A stretch of DNA of 55,383 bases from Gemmatimonadota bacterium (GCA_020061515.1 JAGUYC010000050.1:1-55383); one strand, 5' to 3'; shown: positions 15,782 to 48,329, counted from the first letter of the stretch. Numbers and translations are program-made. The notes: generated by a model not told the origin, from the sequence alone.

Positions 15782-15899
15782 TGGTATAATCCTCGAGAGA
15801 TTCGGGAGATACGGTCTTCTCTTCGGCGCTCGCGGCGGGATGAGAAGGCTCCCTCCCGCTTGCCGCTCCCCGAACGTTCGTCCGAAAAGGAGAAAGCTC

Positions 15900-27392: not shown

Positions 27393-29438
27393 ATGAAACA
27401 TGCGCATGCGATTCTCGTCTCTCTCCTCGCGACGGCTCTCGCGATCGGAAGCGCCTTCGCGGAAGGTTTCGGAACCCCGACGCTGGACGGCGTCGTCGAC
27501 GGGGTCTATGGAAGCGCCGAAGCGTCCGACCCGGCGGGGGACCACTGGAACAACCTCAAAGCGATGGACATGCTAAACCTGTATGTCTGCAACGACAACA
27601 ACTTCTGGTACTTCCTCTTCACGGTGAACGAGAACCTGAGCACGACCAACTGGGGCAAGTACCTCCTCTACATCGACGTCACCAACGACGCGAACGGGGC
27701 GACATCGGACGCGTGGGGGCGGAAGACCAAGGCCGCCGACCCTCACAAACCCGAGTACAGCCTGAACACCTGGGTCAACGCGGCCCCTTACGGATCGGAA
27801 GACACGCAGTTCTGGGTCTGGAATCAGGGGACGACGTCCTGGTCGATGTCGGGCGGCGCCGACGGAGCGGCTCTTTCCGCCGGCGCGGTCTCCGGGATCG
27901 AGTACAAGCTGGCCCGCTCCCGCATCGGGGATCCGTCGACGATCTGGGTCGAGGTTTGGTCGACCGGCGAAACCGGCAACCCGCCCGCGCAGGACACGTC
28001 GAACGATCCGGCGGACGACTGGAACGCCTCGAACTGGGATGACACGGCGACCGTTCTCGTCTCGACGATGGTGACGCGGCAAAGCGGCGGGGACACCACG
28101 CCGCCGACGTTGGAGGACGCGTACATCATCGAGAGCAACCGGGACACGCTGATCGCGGTCTTCAGCGAGCCGCTCGACCCGACGGGCGCGGAGACTCCGG
28201 GCAACTACACCGTGACCGGCGTGACCGTGAACGGCGCGAAGCTCTACGGGGACAGCTCCCAAGTGCTTCTCACGCTCAGCGCGGACATGGGCCTCGGGTC
28301 GTGCCTCACCCTCGAGGCGGTGAACGTCAAGGACCGCGCGTTGAACACGATCGTCGACAACAACACGACCAACGTCCACGAGTTCTACCTGACCCAGCTC
28401 CTCGTCCGAGCAAACATGAACCTCTATCTGCGGACGAACTCCGCCGCACCGGATCCCGACACGGTGGCGATCGAGGGGAGCATTTCGCCGCTTACATGGG
28501 ACCCGACCTGCGACGACCTTCTCGCCGATCCGGAAGGAGATTCGATCTACGTCGGCCGGTTCGTCTTCATGCATACGTGCACGGACGGCGTCACGGACAC
28601 GGTCAACCTCGAGTACAAGTTCACCCACCAGTGCGCGACGTGGGAGAGCATCGGGAACCACGTCTACACGCTGGACGGAACGTACGCAATCGACACGCTC
28701 GACATTTGGTGGGAGAACCTCGCGCCGGTGGACTTCACGGACAAGGACATCGACGTCGTCTTCTTCGTCCGACACTGGAACATCCAGTGGGATTCCGACG
28801 TGGATTCGATCGGCGTCAACGGAAGCCAGGCGCCCCTGAACTGGGATGTCCCGCCGACGAACCGCCTCAAGGACGACGGCGTTCTCCCCGACTCGACGGC
28901 GGACGACGGAATCTTCTCCGCTCGATTCACGTTTCCGACCGGCACTCTGAAGAACGTGGACTTCAAGTTCCTCTGGAAACAGCTTCCGGACACGCTCTTC
29001 AACTACGAGTGCTTCGAGCAGTCGAACCGCAACGTCTACCTGAACGACACGCTTTTCTCGACGACGACTCCGATCGTGATGGATGTCTTCGTGTGGGACT
29101 ACTGCAGCATCGTGCAGGGGATCGGCGGCCGACATGTCCCCGCGACCGGGAGTGCGGAGCTGCTGCACAACGTTCCGAACCCGTTCAACCCGAACACGGC
29201 GATCGAGTTCACGCTCCCCGCGGACGCGTTCGTCGATCTGTCGATCTATGATGTCGGCGGGCGGCTCGTTCGCGGGCTTCTCCGGGGCAATCTCGCCGCC
29301 GGTTCTTACACCGGCGACCGGGCGGTCCCGTGGGACGGAACCGATGACGAAGGCCGGGCCGTGCGAAGCGGCGTCTACTTCTATCGCCTCAAGACGAACG
29401 AGAACGAGACGACCCGAAAGATGGTGCTTGTCCGGTAA
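27393..29438 (+). CDS. Surface protein: CBM9/DOMON-like module, Big-like domain, two CBM20-like starch-binding-like modules, T9SS-type C-terminal domain
   Basis: GGAGGAAG 4 nt upstream and signal peptide MKHAHAILVSLLATALAIGSAFA. TLDGVVDG...LYVCNDNNFWYFLF is the module shared with 11678..12967 and 15900..19907. The CTD is LLHNVPNPFNPNTAIEF...LSIYDVGGRLV...SGVYFYRL. Confidence 0.75.
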   Translation: MKHAHAILVSLLATALAIGSAFAEGFGTPTLDGVVDGVYGSAEASDPAGDHWNNLKAMDMLNLYVCNDNNFWYFLFTVNENLSTTNWGKYLLYIDVTNDANGATSDAWGRKTKAADPHKPEYSLNTWVNAAPYGSEDTQFWVWNQGTTSWSMSGGADGAALSAGAVSGIEYKLARSRIGDPSTIWVEVWSTGETGNPPAQDTSNDPADDWNASNWDDTATVLVSTMVTRQSGGDTTPPTLEDAYIIESNRDTLIAVFSEPLDPTGAETPGNYTVTGVTVNGAKLYGDSSQVLLTLSADMGLGSCLTLEAVNVKDRALNTIVDNNTTNVHEFYLTQLLVRANMNLYLRTNSAAPDPDTVAIEGSISPLTWDPTCDDLLADPEGDSIYVGRFVFMHTCTDGVTDTVNLEYKFTHQCATWESIGNHVYTLDGTYAIDTLDIWWENLAPVDFTDKDIDVVFFVRHWNIQWDSDVDSIGVNGSQAPLNWDVPPTNRLKDDGVLPDSTADDGIFSARFTFPTGTLKNVDFKFLWKQLPDTLFNYECFEQSNRNVYLNDTLFSTTTPIVMDVFVWDYCSIVQGIGGRHVPATGSAELLHNVPNPFNPNTAIEFTLPADAFVDLSIYDVGGRLVRGLLRGNLAAGSYTGDRAVPWDGTDDEGRAVRSGVYFYRLKTNENETTRKMVLVR

Positions 29439-29497: not shown

Positions 29498-29660
29498 CGA
29501 TGCTTCGGCTGCGGTCGGTCGATCGTGATCCCGGGCGGGATGGAGACGATCCGGATGGCGGGGGCCCTCGCGAGCCTTTGCGTCAAGGGTTCCCACACGG
29601 AACTGGGAGAGGCCCCCGACCATCGCGGATCCGATTGTAAACGAAGGCCGCCGGCGCGGC

Positions 29661-31253
29661 TCAGCTCTTCAGGATCTTCTCGACTTCCTCCCGATCCGCG
29701 TCCATCACGTACTCGATCCCGCTCACCCGAGCCGCCTCCGGCGTGAGCGCCACGAGATCGTCTCTCGAGATATGTTCCAGTGAGAACTTTCGAGCGCCGC
29801 ACATGATCTGCCGGAGACCTTGGGCGAGACGTTCGTAGTAAGTGTAGAGCCCGATGGCTCCGGTCGGCAGCTTCTCGAACTCGTCGTCGCCGAGTTCCCT
29901 TCGAAGCTCCGCCGCCGTCACGAAGATCTCGTCCTTCGTGTTCCCGAAACGCTCGACGTAGACGGGGACCTGATTCTCCTCGATCGTGCGGCCGAGCGTC
30001 TTTCCGACCATGACGGCGGCGATCGGCGAACGGGCCATGCCGACGAGCTTCACGAACGGCGCGCCGAGGGCCAGACCCTTGAAGATGGCGTCCTCGAACG
30101 TGAACCCGCTGGCCACCGCGAGAGCGGGAAGGTGTTCCTTCTTCGCGGCGAGCATCGAGGCGTACTGGTAGAGAAGGGAGTGCAGCTCGACCGGAGGAAT
30201 GCCCCACTCGTTCATCATGCGCCACGGGCTCATCCCCGTCCCGCCTCCGGCCCCGTCGACCGTGAGGAGATCGAGCTTGAACTTGGAGGCGAACTTGATC
30301 GCCCTCGCGAGATCGGCCGGACGATACGCTCCGGTCTTCAGGAAGACGTACTTGGCGCCGGCCTTGCGCAGCTCCTCGACTCGCTTCCCGAATGATCCCT
30401 CCTCGACCATGCCGACGCGGGAATGCCGCTCGAACTCCTTGAACGCTCCGCGCTCGAACGCCTTGATGACGAGGGGATCCATCGGGTTCGGAAGAACGAC
30501 GTAGCCACGCTCATGAAGCATCTGCGCCTTCTTGAGATTGCGGACCTTGACCTCTCCCCCGATGTTCTTCGCTCCCTGGCCCCATTTGAGCTCGACGATC
30601 TGAACGCCGAGTTCCTGAATCGCGTACTCCTGCGCGCCGAGACGGGTATCCTCCACGTTCGCCTGCACGATGATCGCGCCGTACCCGTCTCGCTGATGAT
30701 CCTGGTAGAGACGCACGCGCCGTTTGAGATCGACCGTGTCGACGACCCGGCCTTTCTTGATCACCGACTCGGGATCCATCCCGGCGACGTTTTCGCCGAT
30801 GGTGAGTCCCGTTCCGGCGATCGCCGAACCGATCGCCAACCCGTCCCAGTTGTTCTTCGCCACGTCGGTGGAGCCGATTCCGGGGATGATCCACGGGTAG
30901 CGGAACTTGATCCCGCGATCATGCCCGAAGACCGCCTCGAGGCTGACGTTCGGGAAGATCGCCTTGTCGCTGTCCGCCTCGATCCCGTGGGCGCCCACGG
31001 CGGTCCCCATGATGTTGAAGTGCGAATAATCGACCGGATAGAACTTCTCGGCCGCCGTCGTGATGACGCCGAAGGGCTGGGGATAGATCACCTCGTGCCC
31101 ACGGTACGCGGACTTGCCGATCTCGCACATGCCGATGCACCCGTCCACGCAGGTCACGCACATGCCCGAGGAGGGAGTGATCGACTCCTCCGTCCTATTC
31201 TTCGTCAGCGTCGCGGCGGACGAGTTTGTCCTAGAGAATGTCTTCGATTGCAT
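29661..31253 (-). CDS. FMN-binding glutamate-synthase-family protein (GltB FMN/Fe-S domain only)
   Basis: Internal ATG 31253 (MQSKTF…). The listed N-terminal 24 aa are Arg/Lys junk overlapping the upstream gene. N-terminal Cys cluster CVTCVDGCIGMC. TIM-barrel FMN-site signature LTVDGAGGGTGMSPW. No amidotransferase or GXGXG domains. Confidence 0.85.
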   Translation of the reverse strand: MQSKTFSRTNSSAATLTKNRTEESITPSSGMCVTCVDGCIGMCEIGKSAYRGHEVIYPQPFGVITTAAEKFYPVDYSHFNIMGTAVGAHGIEADSDKAIFPNVSLEAVFGHDRGIKFRYPWIIPGIGSTDVAKNNWDGLAIGSAIAGTGLTIGENVAGMDPESVIKKGRVVDTVDLKRRVRLYQDHQRDGYGAIIVQANVEDTRLGAQEYAIQELGVQIVELKWGQGAKNIGGEVKVRNLKKAQMLHERGYVVLPNPMDPLVIKAFERGAFKEFERHSRVGMVEEGSFGKRVEELRKAGAKYVFLKTGAYRPADLARAIKFASKFKLDLLTVDGAGGGTGMSPWRMMNEWGIPPVELHSLLYQYASMLAAKKEHLPALAVASGFTFEDAIFKGLALGAPFVKLVGMARSPIAAVMVGKTLGRTIEENQVPVYVERFGNTKDEIFVTAAELRRELGDDEFEKLPTGAIGLYTYYERLAQGLRQIMCGARKFSLEHISRDDLVALTPEAARVSGIEYVMDADREEVEKILKS

Positions 31254-31977
31254 CTCCTGCTCCCTTTCCTTCTTTCTCTCGGCCGGTTTCCGGTTTTTTG
31301 GACGCCGCGGTGATCTCGCAGGCAACGCAAGGCTCCATGTAGCACATCATGTCCTCGAAAGGTTCCTTCTCGAGGCAGGGGGGGCTCAGGTTCGCGCATC
31401 CGCCGCAGATCGCCTTGTCCGGATCGGTGTACGTGCAGCGGAGCTGGCAGGCCGGGCACACGTAGATGCAACCCCCGCACAGCCGGCAGACTTCGGAACG
31501 GATGTCGAACGGCGTCCCGATGGTGCGTGTCTCGCCGCGCCCCCGGAAGCCGATCGCCTTCGCCATCATCTGTTCCTCGCACATCCGCACGCACAGCCCG
31601 CACATGATGCAGTCCTCATGTTCCTGTCGGAAACGCTGGCGGCGGATGTTGTGCGCGGAAGCCAGATCTTGGATAACCTTCGACTGCGGACAAGAGGCCA
31701 AGAGCAGCTCGAGGATGACCTTGCGGGCCCTCACGACGCGGGCAGACGAAGTCCTCACCTTCAGCCCCTCTTCGGCCGGATAGGTGCAGGAGGTCACCAG
31801 CTTCGCTCTCGGACCCTCGCCGATCTCGACCACGCAAAGCCGGCACGCTCCGTAAGGCGAAAGCCCCTCCATGTGGCACAAGGTCGGTATCGGAAAACCA
31901 TAGAAACGGGAAACCTCCAGGAGGGTCGTGCCCTTCTCGACCGATACCGACAAGCCGTTGATGTTCAGCGTGATCAC
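31231..31977 (-). CDS. 2Fe-2S plus 4Fe-4S iron-sulfur protein (NuoG/HydA N-terminal-like)
   Basis: GTG 31977 lies 8 nt after AGGAGG and overlaps the upstream stop as GTGA (31974-31977), giving (M)ITLNINGLSVSVEKGTTLLEV… Motifs: CHMEGLSPYGACRLCVVE (2Fe-2S) and CIMCGLCVRMC and CRLCGGCIYVCP (4Fe-4S). The 3-prime end overlaps the next gene by 23 nt. Confidence 0.8.
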   Translation of the reverse strand: MITLNINGLSVSVEKGTTLLEVSRFYGFPIPTLCHMEGLSPYGACRLCVVEIGEGPRAKLVTSCTYPAEEGLKVRTSSARVVRARKVILELLLASCPQSKVIQDLASAHNIRRQRFRQEHEDCIMCGLCVRMCEEQMMAKAIGFRGRGETRTIGTPFDIRSEVCRLCGGCIYVCPACQLRCTYTDPDKAICGGCANLSPPCLEKEPFEDMMCYMEPCVACEITAASKKPETGREKEGKGAGDAIEDIL

Positions 31978-34900
31978 GCGTATTGCCTCCTGGCTTCGGA
32001 CACCGATTCCTCCTCCTCCTTCGGCCTGGTGAACTCGAGGTCGCAGCGGAGGCACCGGTGCGCCTCACGGCTCGCTTCCTCGGGGGAAAGGGACACTTCC
32101 ACCTCGGCGAAGTTCCTCTTTCGCCACGCCGCCGCCGCGCGCGGCGTCTCCGTCCGTCCGCCCTCCTCTGCGCCCTCTTCGAGGGGAGCCGCCGGCTCGA
32201 TGTAGATCCTCGGAAGGACCGGCTGCGCGGGCTCGAGAAGGATCGCGCCCCGAACGTAGCGATCGATCATGATCGCCGCCTTCTTCCCCGCTGCGATCGC
32301 CTCCACCACGGTGTTCGGTCCGGTCACGAGATCGCCCGCGGCGAAGACGCCGGACCGGTTGGTGAGGAGCGTTTTCGGATCCACGCGCACCGTGTTCTTC
32401 TTGGTGATCTCCACTCCGCTCGAAAGCGCGGGGGAGATCGTGTCCGCTCCCGAGTCCTCGCCGATGGCGACGACCAGGGTATCCAAAGCGATCGTGTGCT
32501 CGGTTCCCGGAAGAGGAACCGGGCGCCGCCTTCCGCTGGAGTCGACCTCGCCGAGCTCGTTTCGAACGCACTCGACGCCGACGAGCCGCCCGCCTTCCGA
32601 AAGCACGCGAAGAGGCGTGACGAGCGTCTGGATCGCGATCCCTTCCTGCTCCGCCGCCTCGACCTCCTCCGCGAACGCGGGCATCTCGTCTCGCGTTCGG
32701 CGGTAGAGGATCGTGACGCTTTCGACGCCGTCCAGTCGGAGCGCCGTTCGGGCGGCGTCCACGGCGGAGTTGCCCCCGCCGATCACCCCGACGCGGCCCT
32801 TCGCCGGCTTCGTCCCGCGGAGGTTGAAGGCCTTCAGGAACTCGATCGACGGATGAACGCCCGCGACGTTCTCGCCTTCCAGGCGAAGGGGAACGCTCCT
32901 GTGCGCGCCGATTGCCAGAAGCACCGCACCGTAGCCGTCCTTGATCAGTCCGTCCACGTCGATGTCGCGCCCGAGGGCGACTCCGCACTCGATGCGGATG
33001 TTCTCGTTGAGGAGCGCGTGGATCTCTTTCTCGATGACTTCCCTCGGCAGGCGGTAGGGCGGGATCGCGCAGTAGAGCATGCCGCCCGGCCTGTCTTCCG
33101 CCTCAAACACCGTGACCTTGTAACCCTTGAGAGAGAGATGGTGGGCGGCGGTGATGCCCGCGGGCCCCGAACCGACGATGGCGACGCGGGGCGGTTCCCC
33201 GTCCTCCCAAACCGCCGGGGTCGGCCGGCAGATCGAAGGATCGGTGCGGTCGGTGATGAAGCGTTTCAAGGCGCGGATCGCCACCGCATCCCCTCCGGTC
33301 GCGCCCGCCACGCATCTTTCCTCGCACGGATGATGGCAGACACGCGCGCAGACCGAAGGGAACGGGTTCGTCTCCCGGATCGCGCGGTAGGCTTCCTCGT
33401 ACTCGCCGCGAGCGATGTGCGCGACATAGCGCCACGCCTCCGTTCCGAGGGGACACGCGGCCTGGCAGGGAGCCCCGACAAGCGGCCGGCAAACGAACGC
33501 ATCGCACTTCTTGTCGACGACGTGCCGCAGGTACTCCTCGCGGAAGTATCGCAGCGTGCTGAGCACCGGGTTCGGAGCCGTCTGGCCGAGTCCGCACATC
33601 GTGGTGTCCTTCACCACGTGCGCCAACTCCTCCAGAAGATCGATGTGCTCGAGCGTTCCCTTTCCCGAGGCGATGTCCTCGAGGATCTCGTACATCCGCT
33701 GCGTCCCCTTGCGGCACGTGAAGCACTTCCCGCACGATTCATCCTTCAAGAAGTTCATGAAGTACTTCGCCACATCGACCATGCACGTGTTCTCGTCCAT
33801 GACGATCATCCCGCCGGAGCCCATGATGGTTCCTGCTTCCGCCAGGCTGTCGTAGTCGATGGGGAGGTCGAACTTGTCCGCGGGAATGCAGCCGCCCGAC
33901 GGTCCACCCGTCTGAATGGCTTTGATCCTCGCCTTGCCGGAAGGGCCCCCTCCGATCTCGTAGACGATCTTTCGGATCGTGGTCCCCATCGGGACTTCCA
34001 CGAGGCCCGTGTTCTTGATCTTTCCGACGAGGCTGAAGATCTTCGTTCCGGAATTGCCTTTGGTTCCGATCTTCGCGAACTCATCCGCCCCGCGCCGGAT
34101 GATCAGCGGAATGTTCGCCCAGGTCTCGACGTTGTTGATCGCGGTCGGCCTCCCGCCGATTCCTCTCTGAACCGGGAACGGAGGACGCTGGCGAGGTTCA
34201 CCGATCTTCCCTTCGATCGAACGGATGAGCGCGGTCTCCTCACCGCACACGAACGCGCCCGCCCCCTTGACGATGTCGATGTCGAACGAGAACGTCGTGC
34301 CCAGGATCTCCCGGCCCAAAAGCCCATACTCGCGGGCCTGTCTCAGGGCGATGATCAGGTGCTTGATCGCGAGCGGGTATTCATTCCGCACATAAACGAT
34401 CCCCTTTGTTGCTCCCGTTCCGTAGGCCCCGATGATCATCCCCTCGATGATGCTGTGGGGATTCCCCTCGAGGATGCTCCGGTCCATGTACGCGCCCGGA
34501 TCCCCCTCGTCCGCGTTGCACACGAGGTACTTGCCGCCGTCGACCGGTTGCGCCGCGAGAAGCTCCCATTTCCTCCCCGTGGGAAACCCGCCGCCCCCAC
34601 GCCCGCGGAGCCCGGACTTCTTGACCTCCTCCACCACCCACTGCGGGCTCCCGCTCGCCAGCGCCTTCTCGAGAGCGGCGTATCCTTCCTCCGAGATGTA
34701 GTTGTTGATTCGAATCGGATCGACCTTCTGTCCCATCTCCAGCAAACTGCGCTTCTGATATTTGAAGAACGGAATATCGTCTTGTCGGTAGTACTTCCGT
34801 CCGGATTGGGGATCCTGATAGACCAGCTCATCCACATGCTCTCCGACAAGGGCGGCATCGATGATGCGCGGCACGTCCTCCAGCCGCACCTGAGCGTAGA

Positions 34901-35159
34901 AGGCTCCTGCGGGCTCCACCAGAACGAAAGGACCCATCTCGCAGTCCAGGATGTCCCCCCCCGTGATGGTGAGGGCGATCTTGTCCTGGATACCCCTGGT
35001 CATGATGTGTCGCTTCGCGACCCGGATGATGCCGTTCGAGCCGCACGCTTGGCAGGCGGTCCCCGCGCACAGAACGACGCGAAGCCTGCCCGCATCCACG
35101 TCATAGCGGAGAATGCCCCGGAGTCTCTTCAGATCGTCGATGGAAGCCAATCTCGGCAT
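31974..35159 (-). CDS. Fusion flavoprotein: NuoF/HydB-like NADH-FMN module fused to GltD/NfnB-like FAD-NAD(P)H oxidoreductase
   Basis: 1061 aa. N-terminal thioredoxin-like region VLCAGTACQACGS. NuoF signatures GRGGGGFPTGRKW, CGKCFTCRKG, MCGLGQTAP. GltD-like Fe-S region CQAACPLG…CARVCHHPCEERC. Two Rossmann motifs: VAIVGSGPAGITAA and VGVIGGGNSAVDAA. Confidence 0.9.
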   Translation of the reverse strand: MPRLASIDDLKRLRGILRYDVDAGRLRVVLCAGTACQACGSNGIIRVAKRHIMTRGIQDKIALTITGGDILDCEMGPFVLVEPAGAFYAQVRLEDVPRIIDAALVGEHVDELVYQDPQSGRKYYRQDDIPFFKYQKRSLLEMGQKVDPIRINNYISEEGYAALEKALASGSPQWVVEEVKKSGLRGRGGGGFPTGRKWELLAAQPVDGGKYLVCNADEGDPGAYMDRSILEGNPHSIIEGMIIGAYGTGATKGIVYVRNEYPLAIKHLIIALRQAREYGLLGREILGTTFSFDIDIVKGAGAFVCGEETALIRSIEGKIGEPRQRPPFPVQRGIGGRPTAINNVETWANIPLIIRRGADEFAKIGTKGNSGTKIFSLVGKIKNTGLVEVPMGTTIRKIVYEIGGGPSGKARIKAIQTGGPSGGCIPADKFDLPIDYDSLAEAGTIMGSGGMIVMDENTCMVDVAKYFMNFLKDESCGKCFTCRKGTQRMYEILEDIASGKGTLEHIDLLEELAHVVKDTTMCGLGQTAPNPVLSTLRYFREEYLRHVVDKKCDAFVCRPLVGAPCQAACPLGTEAWRYVAHIARGEYEEAYRAIRETNPFPSVCARVCHHPCEERCVAGATGGDAVAIRALKRFITDRTDPSICRPTPAVWEDGEPPRVAIVGSGPAGITAAHHLSLKGYKVTVFEAEDRPGGMLYCAIPPYRLPREVIEKEIHALLNENIRIECGVALGRDIDVDGLIKDGYGAVLLAIGAHRSVPLRLEGENVAGVHPSIEFLKAFNLRGTKPAKGRVGVIGGGNSAVDAARTALRLDGVESVTILYRRTRDEMPAFAEEVEAAEQEGIAIQTLVTPLRVLSEGGRLVGVECVRNELGEVDSSGRRRPVPLPGTEHTIALDTLVVAIGEDSGADTISPALSSGVEITKKNTVRVDPKTLLTNRSGVFAAGDLVTGPNTVVEAIAAGKKAAIMIDRYVRGAILLEPAQPVLPRIYIEPAAPLEEGAEEGGRTETPRAAAAWRKRNFAEVEVSLSPEEASREAHRCLRCDLEFTRPKEEEESVSEARRQYA

Positions 35160-35199
35160 GCTAGCACCTCCGCCGGCCGGCGAACACGCGCCGGATCCG

Positions 35200-36177
35200 T
35201 CAGACCAAATCGAACATGTGGTTCTTGCAGCCGCGGCGCGAACAGATCTGAAGCATTCCGCCTCCGCGGACGATCATCGCCACCATCGGCGCGCCGCAGT
35301 CGGTACAAACCGTCGCGCCCGCGATCTCCGCATGACAATGCGGACAGAAGAAATTCACGATCGTGTCCTTCGGAATCGGGTCCTCCGATTCGACCGAGTA
35401 GCTGCCGTAGAGACTCGACAGCCGCAGCCACCCGTGCTTGTCGGCGAAGGCTGCCGTCACTCGAATCGACGGATGCCCGTCGAGCAGCCTCTCGGGATCC
35501 ATGAAGCTGTGGTTGCACCGCGGGCAGCTGGTTTCGAGCGGGAAGACGCGAATGTCCGTCTCGGCGTCGACCGCGTCCAAACCGGTCTTCGACTTGTCGA
35601 TGATCGACCGAACCTTGGACGCGTTCACCTTCGAAAAGTAGTGGCCGTCGACGACGGCGACCGGGCCGAGAGCGCACGCCCCGAGGCAGTTCACGGTGTG
35701 GAGCGTGAACTCCTTGTCCGCCGTGGTGTCGCCGGCCTTCACGTCCAGCCGCTCCTCGAACTCCCGGGCGACCGCCTGCGCGCCGCGGACATGGCACGCG
35801 GTTCCGAGGCAAACCGAGAGGAGATGCTTCCCTCGCGGCTTCAGGCTGAACGACTTGTAGAAGGTCGCCACGCCGTAGATATCCACGAGGGAGCGGCCCG
35901 TTCGTTCGGCGGTCAGGTTGAGGGCGTGGCGCGGAAGATAGCCGTATTTCGCCTGGACCGCCTCGAGGATCGAGATGATCCCCCCGTGCGCCGATCCGAA
36001 CTTGTCGATGATCCCCGCGAGCGCGCTCGGACGAATCCCCTCGAACTCGTCGCACTCGAAGCGCGGGGAACCGAACGACCTCAAGTACTCGCAGGTCTCC
36101 AGATGGAGACACGTTGCGCACAGCCCCTCCCCCTTGTCGGAAAGGAGCGCCTCCTCGCCTTTCTCCGCTCGGTTCAT
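35200..36177 (-). CDS. NuoE/HydC-like thioredoxin-fold 2Fe-2S protein with N-terminal 4-Cys module and C-terminal Cys-pair (zinc-ribbon-like) domain
   Basis: Internal ATG 36177 lies 1 nt after the upstream stop. N-terminal GLCATCLHLETCEYLRSFGSPRFECDEFEG. NuoE core CLGTACHVRGA…CLGACALGPV. C-terminal CPRC…CPHC…CTDC…CSRRGC. Confidence 0.85.
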   Translation of the reverse strand: MNRAEKGEEALLSDKGEGLCATCLHLETCEYLRSFGSPRFECDEFEGIRPSALAGIIDKFGSAHGGIISILEAVQAKYGYLPRHALNLTAERTGRSLVDIYGVATFYKSFSLKPRGKHLLSVCLGTACHVRGAQAVAREFEERLDVKAGDTTADKEFTLHTVNCLGACALGPVAVVDGHYFSKVNASKVRSIIDKSKTGLDAVDAETDIRVFPLETSCPRCNHSFMDPERLLDGHPSIRVTAAFADKHGWLRLSSLYGSYSVESEDPIPKDTIVNFFCPHCHAEIAGATVCTDCGAPMVAMIVRGGGMLQICSRRGCKNHMFDLV

Positions 36178-36178
36178 T

Positions 36179-36484
36179 TCAGCAATACTCCTCGCAGTGC
36201 CACACACCTCCCTCCGGCTTGGGATAGGTGCAGGTCGCACGGATCGCGCAGTTCTTGCAAAGGCCCTTGTACTTGGTTTCCGCTTCCTGCGGGCTCGGCG
36301 GGAGAGCCTCTTTCTCTTCCTTCGACGAAGAACTCTCAAGGGATCCCACGCGCTCCTCCACGCAGCCCAACACTCCTTCGTGCTCGTCGCAGTAAAAGAG
36401 AGGAGGGCCGAAAAGCTTCAGATAAGAACATGTCTCGGCGTTGTCGCAGGTCGAGCAAATCCCCAGAGGACGTGATGTCTCCAT
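36179..36484 (-). CDS. Small cysteine-rich protein, two copies of the CX2CX5CX11-12C[DE]E module
   Basis: 101 aa from internal ATG 36484; the rest of the listed 294-aa ORF is Arg/Gly junk overlapping 36568..36948. Modules GICSTCDNAETCSYLKLFGPPLFYCDEHEG and GLCKNCAIRATCTYPKPEGGVWHCEEYC. The motif recurs in frame in neighbouring genes, which supports coding. Confidence 0.6.
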   Translation of the reverse strand: METSRPLGICSTCDNAETCSYLKLFGPPLFYCDEHEGVLGCVEERVGSLESSSSKEEKEALPPSPQEAETKYKGLCKNCAIRATCTYPKPEGGVWHCEEYC

Positions 36485-36567
36485 CGGGTCTTCCGCATCC
36501 TTCGGCCGGCCGCCGGCCCGGGACCGGCGACCGGAGGGGGCCACGATCCCCTCTCTCTTTCGCGGAC

Positions 36568-36948
36568 CTACCGAAACTCCTCGCAGAACCACACTCCCTC
36601 CGCCGATTTCGGGTAGGTGCATCCTTCCAGCCGCACGCACGTCCGGCACAACCCCCTCATCTCCCCCACCGGCCAAGCGCCCTCCGGGGCCTCGATCGAG
36701 GCGAGGGACGGCCCGACTCGGGGCCGCTCCGTGGCCGGGCGAATCTCGCCGTAGCCGTCGAACTCCTCGCAGAAGCGGACCGGGAGACCGGGGCTTCTCG
36801 GGAACGTGCACGTGGCGGCGCTGGCGCAGGTGGCGCAGAGACCGCTCCCGCCAAGGACCGGTCGCTCCTCGCGAACCGCTCGTTTCCCTTGCGCGGCGGG
36901 GCTCCTCCGCGCCTTTGCCTTCGTGATCTTCGTCTTCGTGGGGGTCAT
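36568..36948 (-). CDS. Small cysteine-rich protein, two copies of the CX2CX5CX11-12CEEF module
   Basis: 126 aa with GGAGGTG 7 nt upstream of ATG 36948. Modules GLCATCASAATCTFPRSPGLPVRFCEEFDG and GLCRTCVRLEGCTYPKSAEGVWFCEEFR. First gene after the sigma-54 promoter. Confidence 0.6.
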   Translation of the reverse strand: MTPTKTKITKAKARRSPAAQGKRAVREERPVLGGSGLCATCASAATCTFPRSPGLPVRFCEEFDGYGEIRPATERPRVGPSLASIEAPEGAWPVGEMRGLCRTCVRLEGCTYPKSAEGVWFCEEFR

Positions 36949-37218: not shown

Positions 37219-37280
37219 GGTGACAGACACCATTTTCGAGAAGATGGTGTCTGTCACCCTACGTCACGGTGTCTGTCACC
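37219..37280. promoter_or_regulatory. Three copies of a 13-mer GGTGTCTGTCACC (one inverted): candidate enhancer-binding sites and/or stem-loop
   Basis: GGTGACAGACACCAT (37219-37233) and ATGGTGTCTGTCACC (37244-37258) form a perfect 15-bp inverted repeat with a 10-nt spacer. GGTGTCTGTCACCCTACGT is directly repeated at 37246-37264 and 37268-37286 (22-bp period). The block lies 185-260 bp upstream of the sigma-54 promoter and abuts the stop codon of the regulator gene. Confidence 0.5.
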
Positions 37281-38627
37281 CTACGTGGCTTCTTGCTTTT
37301 TCTGCTTCTCCCGCAGCGTCTTGCGGTCAATGCCGAGGATCTCCGCCGCTCGGGTCTTGTTTCCCCCGACGCTCGCCAGCACGTTCCGGATGTGCTCCGC
37401 CTCGACCTCCGCCAGAGTCCGGTCCACGCCGGACCCGCGCACCGCCGAGAAGCGGAGATACGGAGGGAGAACGGGAACGTCGATCACGTCCCCTTCGGTC
37501 ATCACCACCAGCCGCTGCACGAGGTTTTCCAGCTCCCGCACGTTGCCCGGCCAGTGATACCGCTTGAGCACGCGGAGCGCCCCGTCGGTGAAGCGCGGAA
37601 CCGGCTGGTTCAGCTCCTTCGAGAACTTCGTGCCGAAATGGTTGATGAGAAGAAGGATGTCGTCTCCCCTCTCGCGCAGGGGCGGAACGGTGATCGTGAT
37701 GACGTTCAGGCGGTAGAAGAGGTCCTCGCGGAAGGAGCCTTTCTTCACCAGCCCGAGGAGGTTCTTGTTCGTGGCCGCGACGATCGCGACATCGACTTTC
37801 CTCGGCCGGCTGGTGCCGACCATGCAGATCTCTTTGGTCTGAAGAACACGGAGCAGCTTCACTTGCATCGACGCGCTCGTCTCGCTGATCTCGTCGAGGA
37901 AGATCGTTCCTCCTTCGGCGGTCGCGAAGAAGCCCGCCCGCGACTCGGACGCGCCCGTGAACGCTCCCTTCACGTAGCCGAAGAGCTCGCTCTCGAGAAG
38001 CCCCTCCGGAATCCCGCCGCAGTTCACCGGAACGAAAGGCGCCGAGGCTCTCGGGCTCTCGTAGTGGATGGCGCGCGCGACCAGCTCCTTCCCCGTCCCG
38101 CTCTCGCCGGTGATGAGGACCGTCGCGGGTGTCCTTGATGCCTTAACGATCGAGTGAAACACCCTGCCCATCACGTCCGACTCTGCGATGAGCCCCTGGG
38201 GACCGGCCGGCTTCGCGCCTGCGCCCGTTCGCGCGCCCCTCCGCGTGCGCAGTCTGTCGAGCCCGCGGCGCACGGCCGTGAAGAGCTCCTCGTCGGTGAA
38301 GGGCTTGGGAAGATATTCGGCCGCCCCGGCCTTCATGGCCTCGACCGCTCCCTCGACCGAGGCGTATCCGGTGATCATCACGATCTCCGTGTCCGCGAAG
38401 TTCTCCCGCACGTGGCGGACAAGATCCGTTCCCGTGATCTTGGGCATCTTGTAGTCCGTGATGACGAGATCGACGGGCGTCTCCTCGAGAATCCGGATCG
38501 CTTCCTCGACTCCCGAAGCCGAGAAGACCAAGTACCCTTGCGCGGTGAGGTTTCTCCGGAGCACCTCGACCGTCACGGGGGAATCGTCGACCACCAGGAT
38601 TCTCTCTTGCTTCTCAGGCTCCGGCAT
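37281..38627 (-). CDS. Sigma-54-dependent response regulator (NtrC family: REC-AAA+-Fis HTH)
   Basis: Receiver domain ILVVDDSP…DLVITDYKMP. AAA+ Walker A GESGTGKE, plus ESELFGYVKGAFTGA (GAFTGA loop). C-terminal HTH NKTRAAEILGIDRKTLREK. Start is ATG 38627 (best SD spacing) or 38636; the listed start 38786 lies inside the kinase gene. Confidence 0.9.
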   Translation of the reverse strand: MPEPEKQERILVVDDSPVTVEVLRRNLTAQGYLVFSASGVEEAIRILEETPVDLVITDYKMPKITGTDLVRHVRENFADTEIVMITGYASVEGAVEAMKAGAAEYLPKPFTDEELFTAVRRGLDRLRTRRGARTGAGAKPAGPQGLIAESDVMGRVFHSIVKASRTPATVLITGESGTGKELVARAIHYESPRASAPFVPVNCGGIPEGLLESELFGYVKGAFTGASESRAGFFATAEGGTIFLDEISETSASMQVKLLRVLQTKEICMVGTSRPRKVDVAIVAATNKNLLGLVKKGSFREDLFYRLNVITITVPPLRERGDDILLLINHFGTKFSKELNQPVPRFTDGALRVLKRYHWPGNVRELENLVQRLVVMTEGDVIDVPVLPPYLRFSAVRGSGVDRTLAEVEAEHIRNVLASVGGNKTRAAEILGIDRKTLREKQKKQEAT

Positions 38628-40305
38628 TCTCGTCATCCTCTCTCGCGGGCTCCGGCCCCGCCGCCGGCAGACGAACCTCGAACCGGGATCCTTCTCCGAC
38701 CTGGCTGAAGACCTCGATTCGGCCTTGATGGCCCGCCACGATCCCCTGGACGACCGGCAAGCCGAGCCCCGTCCCCTCGTCGACATCCTTGGTCGTGAAG
38801 AAGGGGATGAAGATCTTCTCCATCGTCTCCTCGCTCATGCCGATTCCGGTGTCCTCCACGACCAGGCGGATGTGATCGCCCTCCGCGAGCGTGCGAACCG
38901 TCAGACGCCCGCCGTCCGGCATCGCTTGCAGGGCGTTGACCACGAGGTTGACCAGGATCTGGCTCATCTGCGCGGGGTCGGCTTCGATCAGGGGGAGATT
39001 CGGCGAAAGCTCGCGCTCAAGCTCGACGCCGCCCTTCGAGCAGCGCGCCTCGAGGAAGTAGAGGCCCTTCTCGACGACCTCGTTCAGATCGACCGTTCCG
39101 CTCGTGACCGGCGCTTGGCGCGCGAATGTCATCAACTTTCGAATCACTTCCCTCGAATGAAGGCACGCGTCCACGATCTTTCGAAGATCTCCCGCGAGAT
39201 CGCTCGGAAGGGCCGAGTCCTTCTCGGCCAGCTGGGCAAGGCCCAGGATGTTTCCGAGAGGCTCGTTCAGCTCATGCGCCACGTGCGCGGCGAGCTGTCC
39301 GATCGTGGCGAGACGGTCCGCGTGCCGCAGCTGTTCGTGCAGCTTCGTCCTTTCCTCTTCCACCTGCTTTCGCTCGACGATCAACGCCGTCTGCCGCGCC
39401 ACTGCGTCGATCAGCACGCGCTCCTCCCGAAGAAAGGGCCCCTCGTCGAGCTCCGGCTTCTTCGCCGCGTAGACGACCTGCAGGAAGCCCCTGCTTTGGC
39501 CCCCGACCATGATCGACGCGGTCAGGCTGCGCCCCTCCTCGGGGAATCCGGGCGTGGAATAGACGCTCCGGTCCAGGACGATCTTGGCGAACGTGATGAC
39601 CGGGTATTGCCACGCGGGAGGAAGAAGCTCGACGATTCCCCGAAGGATATCCGCGAGCGAGATGCCGGGCGTCGCGGCGAGATTCGCGATTGCGTAGAGG
39701 CAGGTCAACTCCTTGAGCCGCTCCCTGAGCGCGGCCTGGGTTCGCTGACCGGCGAGGGCGATGCCAAGGTTCCGCGCGAAGCGCGTGTAGAGATCGACCG
39801 TCTCTTGATCGAAGAAGCCCCTTCGCTCGCTCTTGAGAACGAGGAAGCCGGTGTCCTTGTCCGCGACGGGAAGAGGAACGATCGCGATCGAATGGAAGCG
39901 GCCGTCGGATGAGAACCGGCGGAGCCGCGCTTTCTCGCCCTCTTTGCGCGCATCGGCGAGATCCGCTTCCGCGTCGGCGGTCCAGAAGACACTCCCCGCG
40001 AACAGCGCGCGATGCTCCTTGCGAAGAGGAGCCATGTGAATCCGGAACGACTCCCCCGCAACTTGCCGGGACTCGCTCCGGACGTGGCTTCCGTCCTCTC
40101 CGAGCCACAGCTCGACCTCTCGGCATCCGGAGAACTCGATCAGGTTCCCGATCACTTCGTGAAGGAAATCGCTCCTCGAGATCGGACGGTTCGCCTTCTG
40201 GAGAATGCGATGCGACAGATCGCGGAATTCCCTCGCCGTCCGGGCGCCCCGCGGCTCGGGGGTCTCTTCACTCGCCGATTCGTTGCGGCCGTTCTTCGCT
40301 TCCAT
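38614..40305 (-). CDS. Cytoplasmic sensor histidine kinase with tandem GAF-like domains
   Basis: 563 aa with no TM segments. H-box LAAHVAHELNEPL, N-box LVNLVVNALQAM, G1 VEDTGIGM, G2 GTGLGLPV. Overlaps the regulator gene start. Confidence 0.85.
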   Translation of the reverse strand: MEAKNGRNESASEETPEPRGARTAREFRDLSHRILQKANRPISRSDFLHEVIGNLIEFSGCREVELWLGEDGSHVRSESRQVAGESFRIHMAPLRKEHRALFAGSVFWTADAEADLADARKEGEKARLRRFSSDGRFHSIAIVPLPVADKDTGFLVLKSERRGFFDQETVDLYTRFARNLGIALAGQRTQAALRERLKELTCLYAIANLAATPGISLADILRGIVELLPPAWQYPVITFAKIVLDRSVYSTPGFPEEGRSLTASIMVGGQSRGFLQVVYAAKKPELDEGPFLREERVLIDAVARQTALIVERKQVEEERTKLHEQLRHADRLATIGQLAAHVAHELNEPLGNILGLAQLAEKDSALPSDLAGDLRKIVDACLHSREVIRKLMTFARQAPVTSGTVDLNEVVEKGLYFLEARCSKGGVELERELSPNLPLIEADPAQMSQILVNLVVNALQAMPDGGRLTVRTLAEGDHIRLVVEDTGIGMSEETMEKIFIPFFTTKDVDEGTGLGLPVVQGIVAGHQGRIEVFSQVGEGSRFEVRLPAAGPEPAREDDENAGA

Positions 40306-40973: not shown

Positions 40974-42209
40974 TCAGTCCATCCGGTCCGCCACGTGCAC
41001 GGTGAGGTCGGCGAGGCGGTTCGTGTAGCTCCCATATTCGTTGTCGTACCAGCCGAAGATCTTCGCGTGGGTCACGGGAATCCGGACGACCTTCTCCGGA
41101 AGCATTCGCAGGACCTCGGGCTTCATGCCGGGGAGGTTCTCCATGTCGATGTGCACGAAGCCGGTTCTCGTATGCGTCTCGAACCCTTCGATGACGACCG
41201 CTGCGTCCTCTCCGATCATGTCGGTCGAGACGTTCTGCTCCATCGAGAGCTTGAGCAGGCCCTTCTGCTGCTTCTCCGACGCGCGCCGGTAAAGATCGAG
41301 AAGCGCCTCGCGGTTGAAAGTCGGCTGTCCCTCCTCGTCCAATTCCGAGCGCAAGGTCACGTTCAAGATGATGAGCGAAGCAGTCGTCGTCGGGACCCGA
41401 ACCGAATCCGCCATGAAGCCGATCTCGCGCACGACCGGAATCACCTTCTCCAAAGCCGCGGCGGCGTTCGTCGAGGTCAGGATGATGTTGTTCAGGATGC
41501 TCCGGGTCTTTCTGAGGTCCTTCGCGTCCGCCATCGGCACGTTGTCGAGCACCGCCTGCGTGTTCGTCACGGCGTGGATCGTCGACATCGATGCGGTGAG
41601 GATCGTCCGAACCGAGTAGGCGTCGATCAGGGTCTTCATCATGTGGGCGAGCGCGGTTGTCGTGCAGGACGCCGCGGAAATCAGGTGGTGCTTCGCCGGA
41701 TCGTACGCCTCGTGGTTGACCCCGTAGATGAGAACCGCGGAGTCGTCCTTCATCGCCTCGCTCTTCTTCGTCTTGAAGTCGGCGCTGTTTAGGACCTTCT
41801 CCGCGCCGCCGGCGAAGTGCCCTCGCAGCGAACCCTTCTCGTCGTCCTCCGTGCGGTTCGGATCGTTGAACTTCCCCGTGCAGTCGACGACGACGCGCGC
41901 CTCGTTCTCCCGCCACGGAATGTTCGCGGGGTTTCTCTCCTTTCGGAGAATCGTGACCGGCGTATCGTTCACGCGAAGAAGGGACCTTTCCCGGTCCTCG
42001 ATCTTCACGCAAGGCTCCCCTTTCCGCCCATGAAGGAAGTAGTGGAGCGGTCCGTAGGTCGAGTCCTTCTCGATTGTGCGGCAGAAGCCCTCGAGGTCCT
42101 TCCCGACCTCGCGCCCCTGGTTCACGACGACCGCGTCGAAGTACTTCCGTCCCACGTGGTGCCACAACGTCAACTTGCCGATTCGACCGAGAGAGTTGAT
42201 CCCGAGCAC
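40974..42209 (-). CDS. Divergent glyceraldehyde-3-phosphate dehydrogenase-family protein (second paralog)
   Basis: In-frame GTG 42209 preceded by GAGGAAGAAAG gives (M)LGINSLGRIGKL, the [10 protein letters not shown]-type NAD site. Active-site region SAASCTTTALAHMMK, plus STIHAVTNTQAVLD and FGWYDNEYGSYTNRL. About 80 aa longer than the canonical Gap at 53083..54084. The listed N-terminal 78 aa are low-complexity. Confidence 0.75.
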   Translation of the reverse strand: MLGINSLGRIGKLTLWHHVGRKYFDAVVVNQGREVGKDLEGFCRTIEKDSTYGPLHYFLHGRKGEPCVKIEDRERSLLRVNDTPVTILRKERNPANIPWRENEARVVVDCTGKFNDPNRTEDDEKGSLRGHFAGGAEKVLNSADFKTKKSEAMKDDSAVLIYGVNHEAYDPAKHHLISAASCTTTALAHMMKTLIDAYSVRTILTASMSTIHAVTNTQAVLDNVPMADAKDLRKTRSILNNIILTSTNAAAALEKVIPVVREIGFMADSVRVPTTTASLIILNVTLRSELDEEGQPTFNREALLDLYRRASEKQQKGLLKLSMEQNVSTDMIGEDAAVVIEGFETHTRTGFVHIDMENLPGMKPEVLRMLPEKVVRIPVTHAKIFGWYDNEYGSYTNRLADLTVHVADRMD

Positions 42210-42279
42210 CTTTCTTCCTCGCAACGAACGCCTCCCTTCCGCGCGGGCGGACGCCGGGCCGTCTCTCGTCCCGCCGCCG

Positions 42280-46473: not shown

Positions 46474-46599
46474 GGAGAACGCCTCCGCAAGGCGAGTCTC
46501 CCTCCCTCGAAGGATCGACCCTTCTCCCCCGAACGTAAGGGTCCCGGACCTCGCCGGTCCGGGACCCCGCGTCGGATCGTATTCGCTGTCGAGCCGATT

Positions 46600-48243: not shown

Positions 48244-48329
48244 GCCTCTTTCTCCTTGAGGGAGCCGACGGTCCGATTGTCGGGAACGGGAGACCTACCA
48301 ACCACACGGAACAATCCGTAACGTAAATG

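Follow-up and report, generated by a model that had tools for sequence, protein, structure and literature searches.

Operon layout

The window analysed here is a stretch of 55,383 nucleotides from a Gemmatimonadota bacterium (GCA_020061515.1, JAGUYC010000050.1, positions 1–55383). Its minus strand carries six co-directional, tightly packed genes at 29661–36948, which we denote g1 to g6 in the order of transcription. Together they may encode a multi-subunit iron-sulfur (Fe-S) flavoenzyme of the Bfu (HydABC-like) family, whose catalytic subunit would be a relative of the flavin mononucleotide (FMN) domain of glutamate synthase, GltS.

The operon starts with g1 (36568–36948, minus strand, 126 amino acids), encoding a protein with two four-cysteine (Cys4) modules C-x2-C-x5-C-x12/13-C-E-E-F and without a Pfam family. 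Its paralog g2 (36179–36484, minus strand, 101 amino acids) also has two Cys4 modules; an upstream GTG start at 36592 would yield 137 amino acids, as in some public gene calls. The g3 gene (35200–36177, minus strand, 325 amino acids) encodes a NuoE/BfuC-like subunit. The product of g4 (31974–35159, minus strand, 1061 amino acids) is composed of a NuoF/BfuB-like part (the N-terminal 550 residues, 33510–35159, minus strand) and an NfnL/GltD-like module (the C-terminal 511 residues, 31974–33509, minus strand). The g5 gene (31231–31977, minus strand, 248 amino acids) encodes a small BfuA-like Fe-S subunit, and g6 (29661–31253, minus strand, 530 amino acids) an FMN-type (beta/alpha)8 protein that seems to be distantly related to the synthase domain of GltS.

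The junctions are tight. There is a gap of one nucleotide between g2 and g3 at 36178, a GTGA start/stop overlap of g4 and g5 at 31974–31977, and an overlap of 23 nucleotides between g5 and g6 at 31231–31253, the latter given that g6 starts with ATG at 31253. This start is supported by the orthologous proteins, which are conserved across phyla from residues 1–5. Thus a check of the open reading frames (ORFs) reproduced the gene order, the spacing and the two leading Cys4-module proteins of the initial annotation. Directly 3' of the g6 stop codon, at 29647–29660 (minus strand), lies a weak GC hairpin, terminator-like by match to the consensus only and with a poor T tract; it is a possible end of the operon. 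Identical copies of the operon are found on two public contigs. A close relative of g6 (P0001, 97% identity) is annotated as coming from Candidatus Eisenbacteria.

The NuoE/NuoF core

The g3 protein contains the NuoE-like domain PF01257 (E = 1.5e-45), as initially annotated. The ligands of the C1 cluster in its thioredoxin-like [2Fe-2S] domain, C123, C128, C164 and C168, are conserved in 56/56 orthologs. The Cys4 module at its N-terminus (residues 20–42) is fused in only about 7–9 of these 56. A C-terminal extension of about 125 residues (approximately 200–325; 35200–35580) features eight further cysteines, invariant in the 56 orthologs and arranged as four CxxC/Cx4C pairs; its matches to zinc-ribbon and HypA-like families are below the threshold. 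No description of a cysteine-containing C-terminal extension of BfuC was found in the Bfu literature searched.

The domains of g4 are ordered as follows: a weak thioredoxin-like N-terminal domain, Complex1_51K, SLBB, NADH_4Fe-4S, and then Fer4_20 with Pyr_redox_2. Two metal sites of the NuoF-like part show 100% conservation in 58 orthologs. These are the B1 [4Fe-4S] site (C476, C479, C482, C522) and the site denoted B2, formed by three cysteines and a histidine (C459, H546, C552, C557), which correspond to C438, H525, C531 and C536 of A. mobile HydB (7t2r_B), the A. mobile cluster ligands being those listed by Schut et al. 2022 (PMC9304861). The B2 histidine is reported to be absent from non-bifurcating homologs (Schut et al. 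2022, PMC9304861). The equivalent of A. mobile C476 is alanine in the window protein and serine or threonine in most orthologs; threonine replaces this cysteine in about two thirds of BfuB sequences (PMC9304861).

The best PDB matches of the N-terminal part of g4 are NiFe-HydB of A. mobile (E = 1.8e-205) and A. woodii HydB (4e-198), followed by Tsi NfnB, Csac NfnB and StnB, with E-values to 1e-166, whereas the non-bifurcating NAD-dependent Fdh-beta and NuoF of complex I are at about 1e-113 or weaker.

The N-terminal thioredoxin-like domain of g4 is more variable. It matches PF01257 weakly and has a non-canonical set of cysteines, C31, C36, C39 and C73. A few orthologs have the canonical C-x4-C...C-x3-C pattern of the B5 site, and most have three cysteines. 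The window protein is the only one of the 58 with Gly68 in place of the near-universal cysteine of CxxxC, and the only one with Cys39; this looks like a compensating swap of ligands at the B5 metal site (residues approximately 31–73; 34940–35070). In Csac NfnABC both B2 and B5 can be zinc sites, B5 binding zinc with three cysteines and a glutamate or being dispensable, and the minimal bifurcating unit is B1-FMN-C1 according to the same structural work (PMC11829005). Hence the variation of B5 is not strong evidence against membership in the Bfu family.

We assign g3 and g4 to the BfuC/BfuB type, with a predicted NADH/FMN site, B1, the 3Cys+His site and the mobile C1 domain. The pair had been described initially as being of the HydBC/Bfu type, and both the bifurcating HydB and NfnB proteins found as the best structural matches and the invariant 3Cys+His site bear this out.

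The variable C-terminal part of BfuB

In the window protein and in 45 other fused proteins, the GltD-like module begins eight residues past C557, the last of the B2 ligands. In these 46 sequences, five cysteines of the Fe-S sites are invariant (C565, C569, C608, C612, C616), and C604 is present in 43; the GxGxxG motif of the flavin adenine dinucleotide (FAD) site, the second Rossmann motif and the NADPH-type YRR motif are invariant as well. Compared with PDB on its own, the module is closest to Csac NfnA (9bov_A, E = 1.7e-105), Tsi NfnA (9n5u_A, 2.6e-97) and StnC (8oh5_C, 1.6e-91); T. maritima NfnB (4ylf_B) scores 1.4e-83, and Azospirillum GltD (6s6s_G) 1.3e-61. By these scores the module appears to belong with the non-bifurcating NADPH-input domains of the Bfu-type transhydrogenases, NfnA/StnC, and not with true GltD.

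Twelve orthologs are unfused and considerably shorter, 615–619 amino acids (loci L012, L019, L023, L035, L038, L040, L044, L059, L068, L071, L078, L080). Their C-terminal end, CxxCxxCxxxCP...CxxCxxCxxxC, is the B3/B4 ferredoxin-like domain. In current models this domain takes low-potential electrons from the swinging C1 and reduces ferredoxin (PMC11829005). In the window protein the 2x[4Fe-4S] domain B3/B4, one of the features that define the Bfu family, is absent, and the NfnL/GltD-like module is found in its place. On a neighbor-joining tree of the NuoF core, drawn without support values, the unfused proteins do not group together but are interspersed with the fused ones at five or more separate positions. 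This suggests that ports of the ferredoxin type and of the NADPH type were repeatedly exchanged at the C-terminus of BfuB; the scatter of unfused forms, read as repeated exchange, in turn points to functional equivalence of the two ports.

Thus, of the NuoF–GltD fusion described initially, the architecture stands, with Fer4_20 and Pyr_redox_2 behind the NuoF part, but the name of the second half does not, the module being nearer to NfnA/StnC than to GltD. The analogy drawn at the same time, of GltD feeding electrons to GltB as in glutamate synthase, becomes doubtful, since the module is not only of the NfnA/StnC kind but is placed where BfuB carries B3/B4.

The Fe-S subunit and the small Cys4 proteins

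The g5 protein matches Fer2_4 and Fer4_7, as well as the models of the N-terminal parts of HoxU, NuoG and HydA (FeFe-hydrogenase A6), in agreement with its initial description as a [2Fe-2S]/[4Fe-4S] protein similar to the N-terminus of NuoG or HydA. Its [2Fe-2S] domain, at the N-terminus, is followed by two CxxCxxCxxxC motifs and a cysteine-rich tail. All 21 cysteines are conserved, 20 of them in 72/72 orthologs and C96 in 71/72. Besides a [2Fe-2S] cluster, they would suffice for two [4Fe-4S] clusters of the ferredoxin type and perhaps for two more centers in the tail. Domain scans revealed in g5 neither a motif for a His-ligated cluster nor a catalytic, molybdopterin or FdhF-like domain. We consider g5 to be, by its domain content, a truncated BfuA carrying only Fe-S clusters. 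A hydrogenase was also considered and rejected, because g5 is devoid of an H-cluster domain and the operon is not accompanied by a gene for any hydrogenase subunit.

The module C-x2-C-x5-C-x12/13-C-(E/D)-E occurs in five copies, in g1, in g2 and at the N-terminus of g3. In g2, where the C-terminal module reads GLCxxCxxRxTCTYPKPEGGVWHCEEY, eight cysteines are invariant in 34 homologs. The g1/g2 family has about 170 detectable homologs, all unnamed and without Pfam domains, with eight invariant cysteines and a nearly invariant end, CTYPKPEGGVWHCEEY. No Pfam family was found for g1, g2, the N-terminal module of g3 or the tail of g5, all matches (WhiB, FpoO, zinc ribbons) being below the threshold. 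The AlphaFold2 (AF2) model of g2 is uninformative (predicted local distance difference test, pLDDT, 53), and so no fold is proposed for the module. The NuoE-like protein of the window and a minority of its orthologs carry this module as a fused part, which suggests that the small Cys4 proteins bind on the BfuC side of the complex.

The FMN barrel subunit

The similarity of g6 to glutamate synthases is remote. The Pfam domain Glu_synthase (PF01645) matches it only partially, at residues 285–403 (E = 1.3e-11, 44.8 bits, above the gathering threshold), and NCBIfam yields no match. Of 19 members of the family, 17 match Glu_synthase, three FMN_dh and three IMPDH. Clustered at 50% identity, the family has 1078 clusters at E ≤ 0.001 among 1.8 billion representatives. 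A direct phmmer search of PDB with g6 produced no match. The family profile retrieved from PDB mainly de novo designed TIM barrels, and GltS was reached at E = 0.08. The AF2 model, for which a diverse alignment served as input, is a (beta/alpha)8 barrel with pLDDT 84 and predicted template modelling score (pTM) 0.86, and Foldseek places Synechocystis GltS (1ofd) first (E = 3e-9, template modelling score, TM, 0.46).

For a residue-level comparison, the g6 family was aligned by hhalign with the GltS FMN domains of four species, the GltS alignment being rebuilt from PDB alignments; with E. coli GltB alone, the local alignment covered only beta-7 and beta-8. The four-species comparison gave a probability of 76% (E = 2.2e-5) and a confident core at g6 residues 284–500. 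The extended alignment spans the whole barrel, the greedily extended part being of low confidence. In this part IGEN(E154) of g6 is aligned to SGE(903)GGE of GltS, and ELK(223)WGQ(226)GAK(229) to EIKMAQ(969)GAK(972). Further, DGAGGGTGMSP of g6 is aligned to DGGTGASP of GltS, and the C-terminal helices are alike, SLEHISRDDL in g6 and SLDDIIGRTDLL in GltS.

The residues E903, Q969, K972, Q978 and R992, which we take to surround the 2-oxoglutarate/FMN site of Fd-GltS, are borne by the Synechocystis sequence, and the Azospirillum numbering does not fit. The alignment equivalents of the first three, E154, Q226 and K229, are invariant in 79 g6 orthologs; the counterparts of Q978 (E234) and of R992 (H247 or R249) are uncertain. 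Other invariant residues in the same 79 proteins are E234, R249, R276, H277, R279, K306, E387, K392 and R488.

The only invariant cysteines of g6 are found at its N-terminus, in CVTCVDGCIGMC (residues 32–43, C32-x2-C35-x3-C39-x3-C43), which is conserved in 79/79 orthologs. The 3Fe-4S triad of GltB, C-x5-C-x4-C after strand beta-8, is absent from g6, the aligned segment (approximately 414–430) being free of cysteines; hence the cluster of g6 seems to have been relocated. Neither a PurF-type amidotransferase domain nor a beta-helix (GXGXG) domain is found by Pfam in g6. We regard g6 as truly, though only remotely, related to the synthase domain of GltS, with an apparently relocated cluster, and not as a GltB in the family sense. 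Accordingly worded, the initial description survives in part: the cluster motif and the missing amidotransferase are as described, and the Glu_synthase match and the first place of GltS in Foldseek speak for a barrel of this kind, but "stand-alone GltB FMN domain" overstates a remote relationship in which the triad is absent.

Conservation of the cassette

The relatives of g6 form at least 8000 sequence clusters at 90% identity, all passing E = 1e-5, and the best 120 are 81–100% identical to it. A scan with one genome per species yielded at least 596 confirmed matches. Synteny was analysed in the 80 best loci (79–86% identity of g6), whose flanks were searched by tblastn with the window proteins; in the fractions below, the denominators are the loci whose contig reaches far enough.

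These 80 loci come from Zixibacteria, Eisenbacteria, Latescibacterota, Krumholzibacteriia and KSB1; Ignavibacteria, Melioribacteraceae, Chlorobiaceae and Bacteroidota; Phycisphaerae, Pirellulales, Planctomycetales and Candidatus Scalindua, an anammox genus among Planctomycetota; Acidobacteriota, Verrucomicrobiota, Marinimicrobia and Coatesbacteria; the syntrophic Deltaproteobacteria Syntrophorhabdus and Smithella; and metagenome-assembled genomes labelled Alphaproteobacteria.

A g5 homolog is situated immediately upstream of g6 in 74/74 loci, and the cassette contains a NuoF-like gene in 60/60 and a NuoE-like gene in 56/56. Fusion of the GltD-like part to NuoF is seen in 49/60 loci, whereas 11/60 do not have this part; a small Cys-module protein is encoded upstream in 38/52. 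The median identity to the window proteins is 81% for g6 and 81% for g5, 67% for the NuoF part of g4, 61% for its GltD-like part and 61% for NuoE (g3). Conservation is thus highest in g5 and g6, whose genes overlap or abut. All-against-all clustering of the ORFs flanking the 80 loci revealed no other recurrent family; in particular, genes for amidotransferases, GXGXG-domain proteins or glutamine synthetase are not recurrent there. The conserved unit therefore consists of four genes, encoding the NuoE/BfuC-like, NuoF/BfuB-like, small BfuA-like Fe-S and FMN barrel proteins. The co-conservation by which the initial annotation had proposed to judge the operon is evident from these counts, and the six-gene set is reduced to a constant core of four genes, with the GltD-like fusion and the small Cys-module proteins as optional parts.

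More divergent g6 paralogs (P0121–P0171, loci L087–L089; 31–55% identity) mostly keep the N-terminal cysteine motif; in P0146 and P0171 the QGAK motif or the N-terminal cysteines are lost. Where such paralogs stand alone, their neighbors are unrelated genes, for example, those of ornithine decarboxylase, GARS and a C69 peptidase, and hence these contexts are uninformative.

Regulation

Upstream of g1, on the same minus strand, lie two regulatory genes. The nearer one (37281–38786) encodes a sigma-54-dependent response regulator of the NtrC family, with receiver, Sigma54_activat, AAA lid and HTH_8 domains; the sigma-54 interaction domain PF00158 is recognized with E = 1.4e-67. Its true start is probably internal, near 38636 (451 amino acids in public gene calls). 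Upstream of the activator is the gene of a cytoplasmic-type sensor histidine kinase (38614–40305) with the Pfam domains GAF, HisKA and HATPase_c. Homologs of the activator and of the kinase are found upstream of the cassette in 35 and 29, respectively, of the 52 loci with enough flank.

About 70 nucleotides upstream of g1 there is a sigma-54 -24/-12 element, TGGCATGCCGCTTGC (37033–37019, minus strand), of the form TGGCAT-N5-TTGC, that is, with one mismatch to TGGCAC-N5-TTGC. Taken alone, a single match of this kind within 55 kb is not above chance. We scanned 31 loci with the activator upstream, considering the interval between the activator and NuoE on the operon strand and requiring GG/GC-anchored sites with at most one mismatch to TGGCAC-N5-TTGC. 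An equivalent site was observed in 21 of these 31 other genomes versus about 0.7 expected from the background in the same loci. The recurrence of the site, together with the adjoining PF00158 activator, upholds the sigma-54 control proposed initially. The adjacent GAF kinase and NtrC-type activator would switch on expression via sigma-54.

Between the activator and this element, 190–250 nucleotides upstream of the latter, there are three copies of GGTGACAGACACC (37219–37286). It is the core common to two perfect direct repeats of 19 nucleotides (37246–37264 and 37268–37286) and an inverted arm (37219–37237), which together make up an almost perfect palindrome of 40 bp that overlaps the activator gene at its stop codon. 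The repeats are a plausible candidate for the enhancer-binding site of the NtrC-type regulator. A search upstream of the operon in the 31 other genomes did not find the motif, and hence the repeat is lineage-specific.

A model of the complex and its alternatives

As the four proteins are adjacent wherever the contig allows and no other family is recurrent, we interpret them as subunits of one Bfu-family (HydABC-like) iron-sulfur flavoenzyme with a catalytic subunit related to the GltS FMN domain, and we assign this reading, based on comparison of sequences, a probability of about 0.55. NAD(H) would bind at the FMN of BfuB, and g5 would wire the cluster and FMN of g6 to B1-FMN-C1 in the core. 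The port for a low-potential partner would lie at the C-terminus of BfuB, as the normal 2x[4Fe-4S] ferredoxin port (B3/B4) in about one fifth of the relatives and as an NfnA/StnC-like FAD/NADPH module in the window and in most relatives. With such a module at the port, the window enzyme would link three partners, NAD(H), NADP(H) and the third substrate. On the BfuC side, the Cys4 modules of g1, g2 and g3 would be extra metal-binding modules.

The g6 subunit is expected to transfer hydride between FMN and a small substrate, by type a 2-oxo acid or an imino acid. The transfer would most likely run in the reductive direction, so that NADH plus NADPH or reduced ferredoxin would reduce the substrate. 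The 2-oxoglutarate+NH4+/glutamate couple has E0' of about -0.14 V. It is too positive to drive reduction of NAD+ and ferredoxin at ordinary concentrations, which makes the reductive direction more plausible. Our best single guess, with a chance of roughly one in four, is ammonia-dependent reductive amination of 2-oxoglutarate; it is put first because g6 retains GltS-type motifs, the operon seems to be under NtrC-type/sigma-54 control and the conservation is extreme. An extension of this guess, which we consider unlikely, is that the complex performs ATP-independent, redox-driven assimilation of ammonium as an amidotransferase-less glutamate synthase aminating 2-oxoglutarate with free NH3. In this scenario the Bfu core would merge electrons of NADH with lower-potential ones, supplied by NADPH in the fused form and by reduced ferredoxin in the unfused one. 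The additional driving force would take the place of the ATP that GS-GOGAT consumes, and the GAF kinase with the NtrC-type activator would sense the nitrogen status, for example, via 2-oxoglutarate. By our own calculation (-30 mV per tenfold change of concentration), at micromolar ammonium the effective potential of the couple drops towards the range of NAD(P)H.

Several observations weigh against the proposed bifurcating-type complex or against parts of it. The window BfuB has no B3/B4 exit for low-potential electrons, and for this reason classical bifurcation may not occur; moreover, the NfnL-like module could dock on g5, as in NfnA/StnC, instead of replacing B3/B4. The B5 site is degenerate in most orthologs. 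The synteny statistics cover only the clade of g6 with at least 79% identity, and the three divergent paralogs examined (P0121, P0132 and P0157; 32–55% identity) stand alone. As for the catalytic subunit, g6 is very remote from GltS, with no sequence match in PDB and a profile E-value of 0.08, the active-site equivalences fall in the low-confidence part of the alignment, and in Foldseek lactate monooxygenase, flavocytochrome b2, glycolate oxidase and IDI-2 are almost level with GltS. No amidotransferase or nitrogen-assimilation gene is linked to the cassette in the flanks of the 80 loci.

The loss of the B3/B4 port in the window BfuB and the degenerate B5 site would both be expected of a simple NAD(P)H:substrate oxidoreductase, in which the NuoEF-type and NfnL-like modules are alternative entries of NADH and NADPH electrons to g6 and neither bifurcation nor confurcation takes place. 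The potentials of NADH and NADPH presumably differ too little for coupling to bring much gain, and non-bifurcating enzymes with BfuABC homologs are known (PMC9304861). Still, the 3Cys+His site, described as absent from non-bifurcating homologs, is invariant here, the best sequence matches are all bifurcating enzymes, the unfused relatives retain a complete BfuB with B3/B4, and a strongly conserved, costly multi-cluster core is hard to explain in a simple reductase. We consider this reading rather unlikely. A different division of the operon would make g3–g5 an Nfn/Stn-like NADH/NADPH(/ferredoxin) transhydrogenase, merely co-transcribed with an independent GltB-like enzyme, g6. The similarity of the C-terminal module of g4 to NfnA and StnC agrees with such a division, and so does the fact that g3, g4 and g5 together hold every domain type of Stn/NfnABC except the FdhF-like part. 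It is nevertheless very unlikely: g6 is found beside g5 in 74/74 loci, including the 11/60 whose NuoF-like gene has no NADPH module and which, for this reason, could not be transhydrogenases. Further, the g5 and g6 genes overlap or abut and their products are the most conserved ones (median identity 81%), the fused BfuB is without the ferredoxin port, and the invariant Cys4 motif of g6 itself implies that this subunit has an Fe-S partner.

The complex could also be built as proposed and act on another substrate, g6 being an FMN-dependent alpha-hydroxy-acid dehydrogenase of the lactate/glycolate type that couples hydroxy-acid/2-oxo-acid interconversion to NAD(P)(H) and ferredoxin. The Foldseek E-values and TM-scores of lactate monooxygenase, flavocytochrome b2 and glycolate oxidase are about those of GltS, FMN_dh is matched by 3/19 family members, and g6 has an invariant R276-H277-x-R279. 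Against these stand the dominance of Glu_synthase among the Pfam matches (17/19 members) and the alignment with the GltS profile, which covers the barrel together with the GltS-specific C-terminal helices and the ELKxxQGAK and DGxxGGTGxSP motifs. In addition, a comparison that was not a rigorous test did not identify in g6 the Tyr/Tyr/Arg/His/Arg signature of the hydroxy-acid oxidases. Hence a hydroxy-acid dehydrogenase seems quite improbable, and a GltS-related catalytic subunit is retained in the model.

Comparison with known systems

A close parallel is provided by Bfu enzymes of Types 2 and 3 that have an extra catalytic subunit, for example, NiFe-HydABCSL and Wor-BfuABCSL (PMC9304861). 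They share with the cassette BfuC with C1, BfuB with the FMN/NADH, B1 and 3Cys+His sites, BfuA reduced to an Fe-S wire, and a separate subunit with the site for the third substrate; the B3/B4 ferredoxin port is matched only by the unfused orthologs of the cassette. In contrast to the Bfu family, the cassette has as its extra subunit a GltS-FMN-like barrel, a kind of third-substrate module that the lists for the family do not include, B3/B4 is exchanged in the window for the FAD/NADPH module, and BfuC has a zinc-ribbon-like 8-Cys extension, sometimes a fused Cys4 module, and small Cys4 proteins alongside. By sequence, then, the catalytic partner and, in the window, the low-potential port appear to be new relative to the Bfu family.

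The transhydrogenases NfnABC and StnABC (PMC10482914, PMC11829005, PMC12018979) likewise combine a HydBC-like core with an NfnL/GltD-like FAD/NADPH domain. There the latter is inserted in BfuA/StnC, after the [2Fe-2S] domain and before the FdhF-like part, that is, it resides in StnC/NfnA, whereas in the window it is fused to the C-terminus of BfuB. In addition, BfuA of the window has only 248 amino acids and no FdhF-like part, and the ferredoxin port is missing. Finally, Nfn/Stn enzymes have three subunits and no substrates other than NAD(H), NADP(H) and ferredoxin, whereas the cassette has a fourth subunit, g6, adjacent in 74/74 loci, and 11/60 of the relatives have no NADPH module.

The glutamate synthases GltBD and Fd-GltS resemble the cassette in the FMN (beta/alpha)8 synthase-type domain with the ELKxxQGAK and DGxGGTGxSP motifs and the C-terminal helices, and GltBD also in the Fe-S wire by which a pyridine-nucleotide flavoprotein is connected to the FMN site. 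Unlike GltBD, g6 has no amidotransferase, central or beta-helix domains, and an N-terminal C-x2-C-x3-C-x3-C motif instead of the C-x5-C-x4-C triad; the similarity is very remote. The NADPH module resembles NfnA more than GltD, and the NADH-binding NuoEF core is additional.

Among the matches of known structure for the g4 module is the GltD-like NADPH/FAD/2x[4Fe-4S] module of dihydropyrimidine dehydrogenase, DPD/PreTA. The design of DPD/PreTA, in which electrons pass from a GltD-like module through Fe-S clusters to an FMN site in a TIM barrel, follows the same logic as the cassette. However, DPD has an FMN domain that resembles DHODH and not GltS, and it has no NuoEF core.

The third substrates described for Bfu enzymes are H2, formate, NADP, F420, CO, pyruvate, aldehydes, benzoyl-CoA, quinone and H2O2 (PMC9304861), and the structural papers of 2025 list H2, CO, NADP, formate and pyruvate (including PMC11829005). 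Glutamate synthase is not mentioned in the text, Table 1 and a part of the supplement of Schut et al. 2022 (PMC9304861), where 57 BfuB clades are distinguished; an unnamed clade in the supplementary tables of that paper could correspond to the enzyme considered here. A literature search, including possible names of the enzyme, produced no description of the cassette and no characterized enzyme of this composition, in line with the initial statement that the combination matches no characterized system. Soluble NuoEFG/HydABC-like genes in Ignavibacteria-type genomes were taken as a bifurcating hydrogenase (PMC6338057). As the cassette is common in Ignavibacteria and has no H-cluster domain, some of these annotations may in fact refer to it.

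The identity of about 81% in g6 across phyla is at a level usually confined to the core machinery, and the carriers mostly belong to uncultured phyla. If the model is correct, it adds a new third-substrate module to the electron-bifurcating Bfu family, and the switching of ports would be a natural experiment on the gating of low-potential electrons in these enzymes. If, further, the substrate is 2-oxoglutarate plus ammonia, the cassette would represent an unrecognized route of nitrogen assimilation in anoxic environments, and the labels "GOGAT" and "bifurcating hydrogenase" in many metagenome-assembled genomes would need rereading.

Other genes of the window

Upstream of the histidine kinase and directly adjoining it, at 40974–46599 (minus strand), two further proteins are encoded. 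One is GAPDH-like and atypically long, 489 amino acids as the longest ORF and 411 in public gene calls. The other, of 1439 amino acids, has recognizable domains only at the C-terminus, PPDK_N and PEP-utilizer; a PPDK_N gene is likewise found near the cassette in locus L005. The remaining content of the window includes a sugar ABC transporter, a CBM48 protein and MsrB. There are also large predicted secreted proteins at 27393–29438 (plus strand), 15603–19907 (plus strand) and 46600–48294 (minus strand), with ends of the FlgD_ig or Por_Secre_tail type: a 681-residue protein right after the operon, a 1434-residue protein and an M10 peptidase. By these ends, they look like cargo of type IX secretion.

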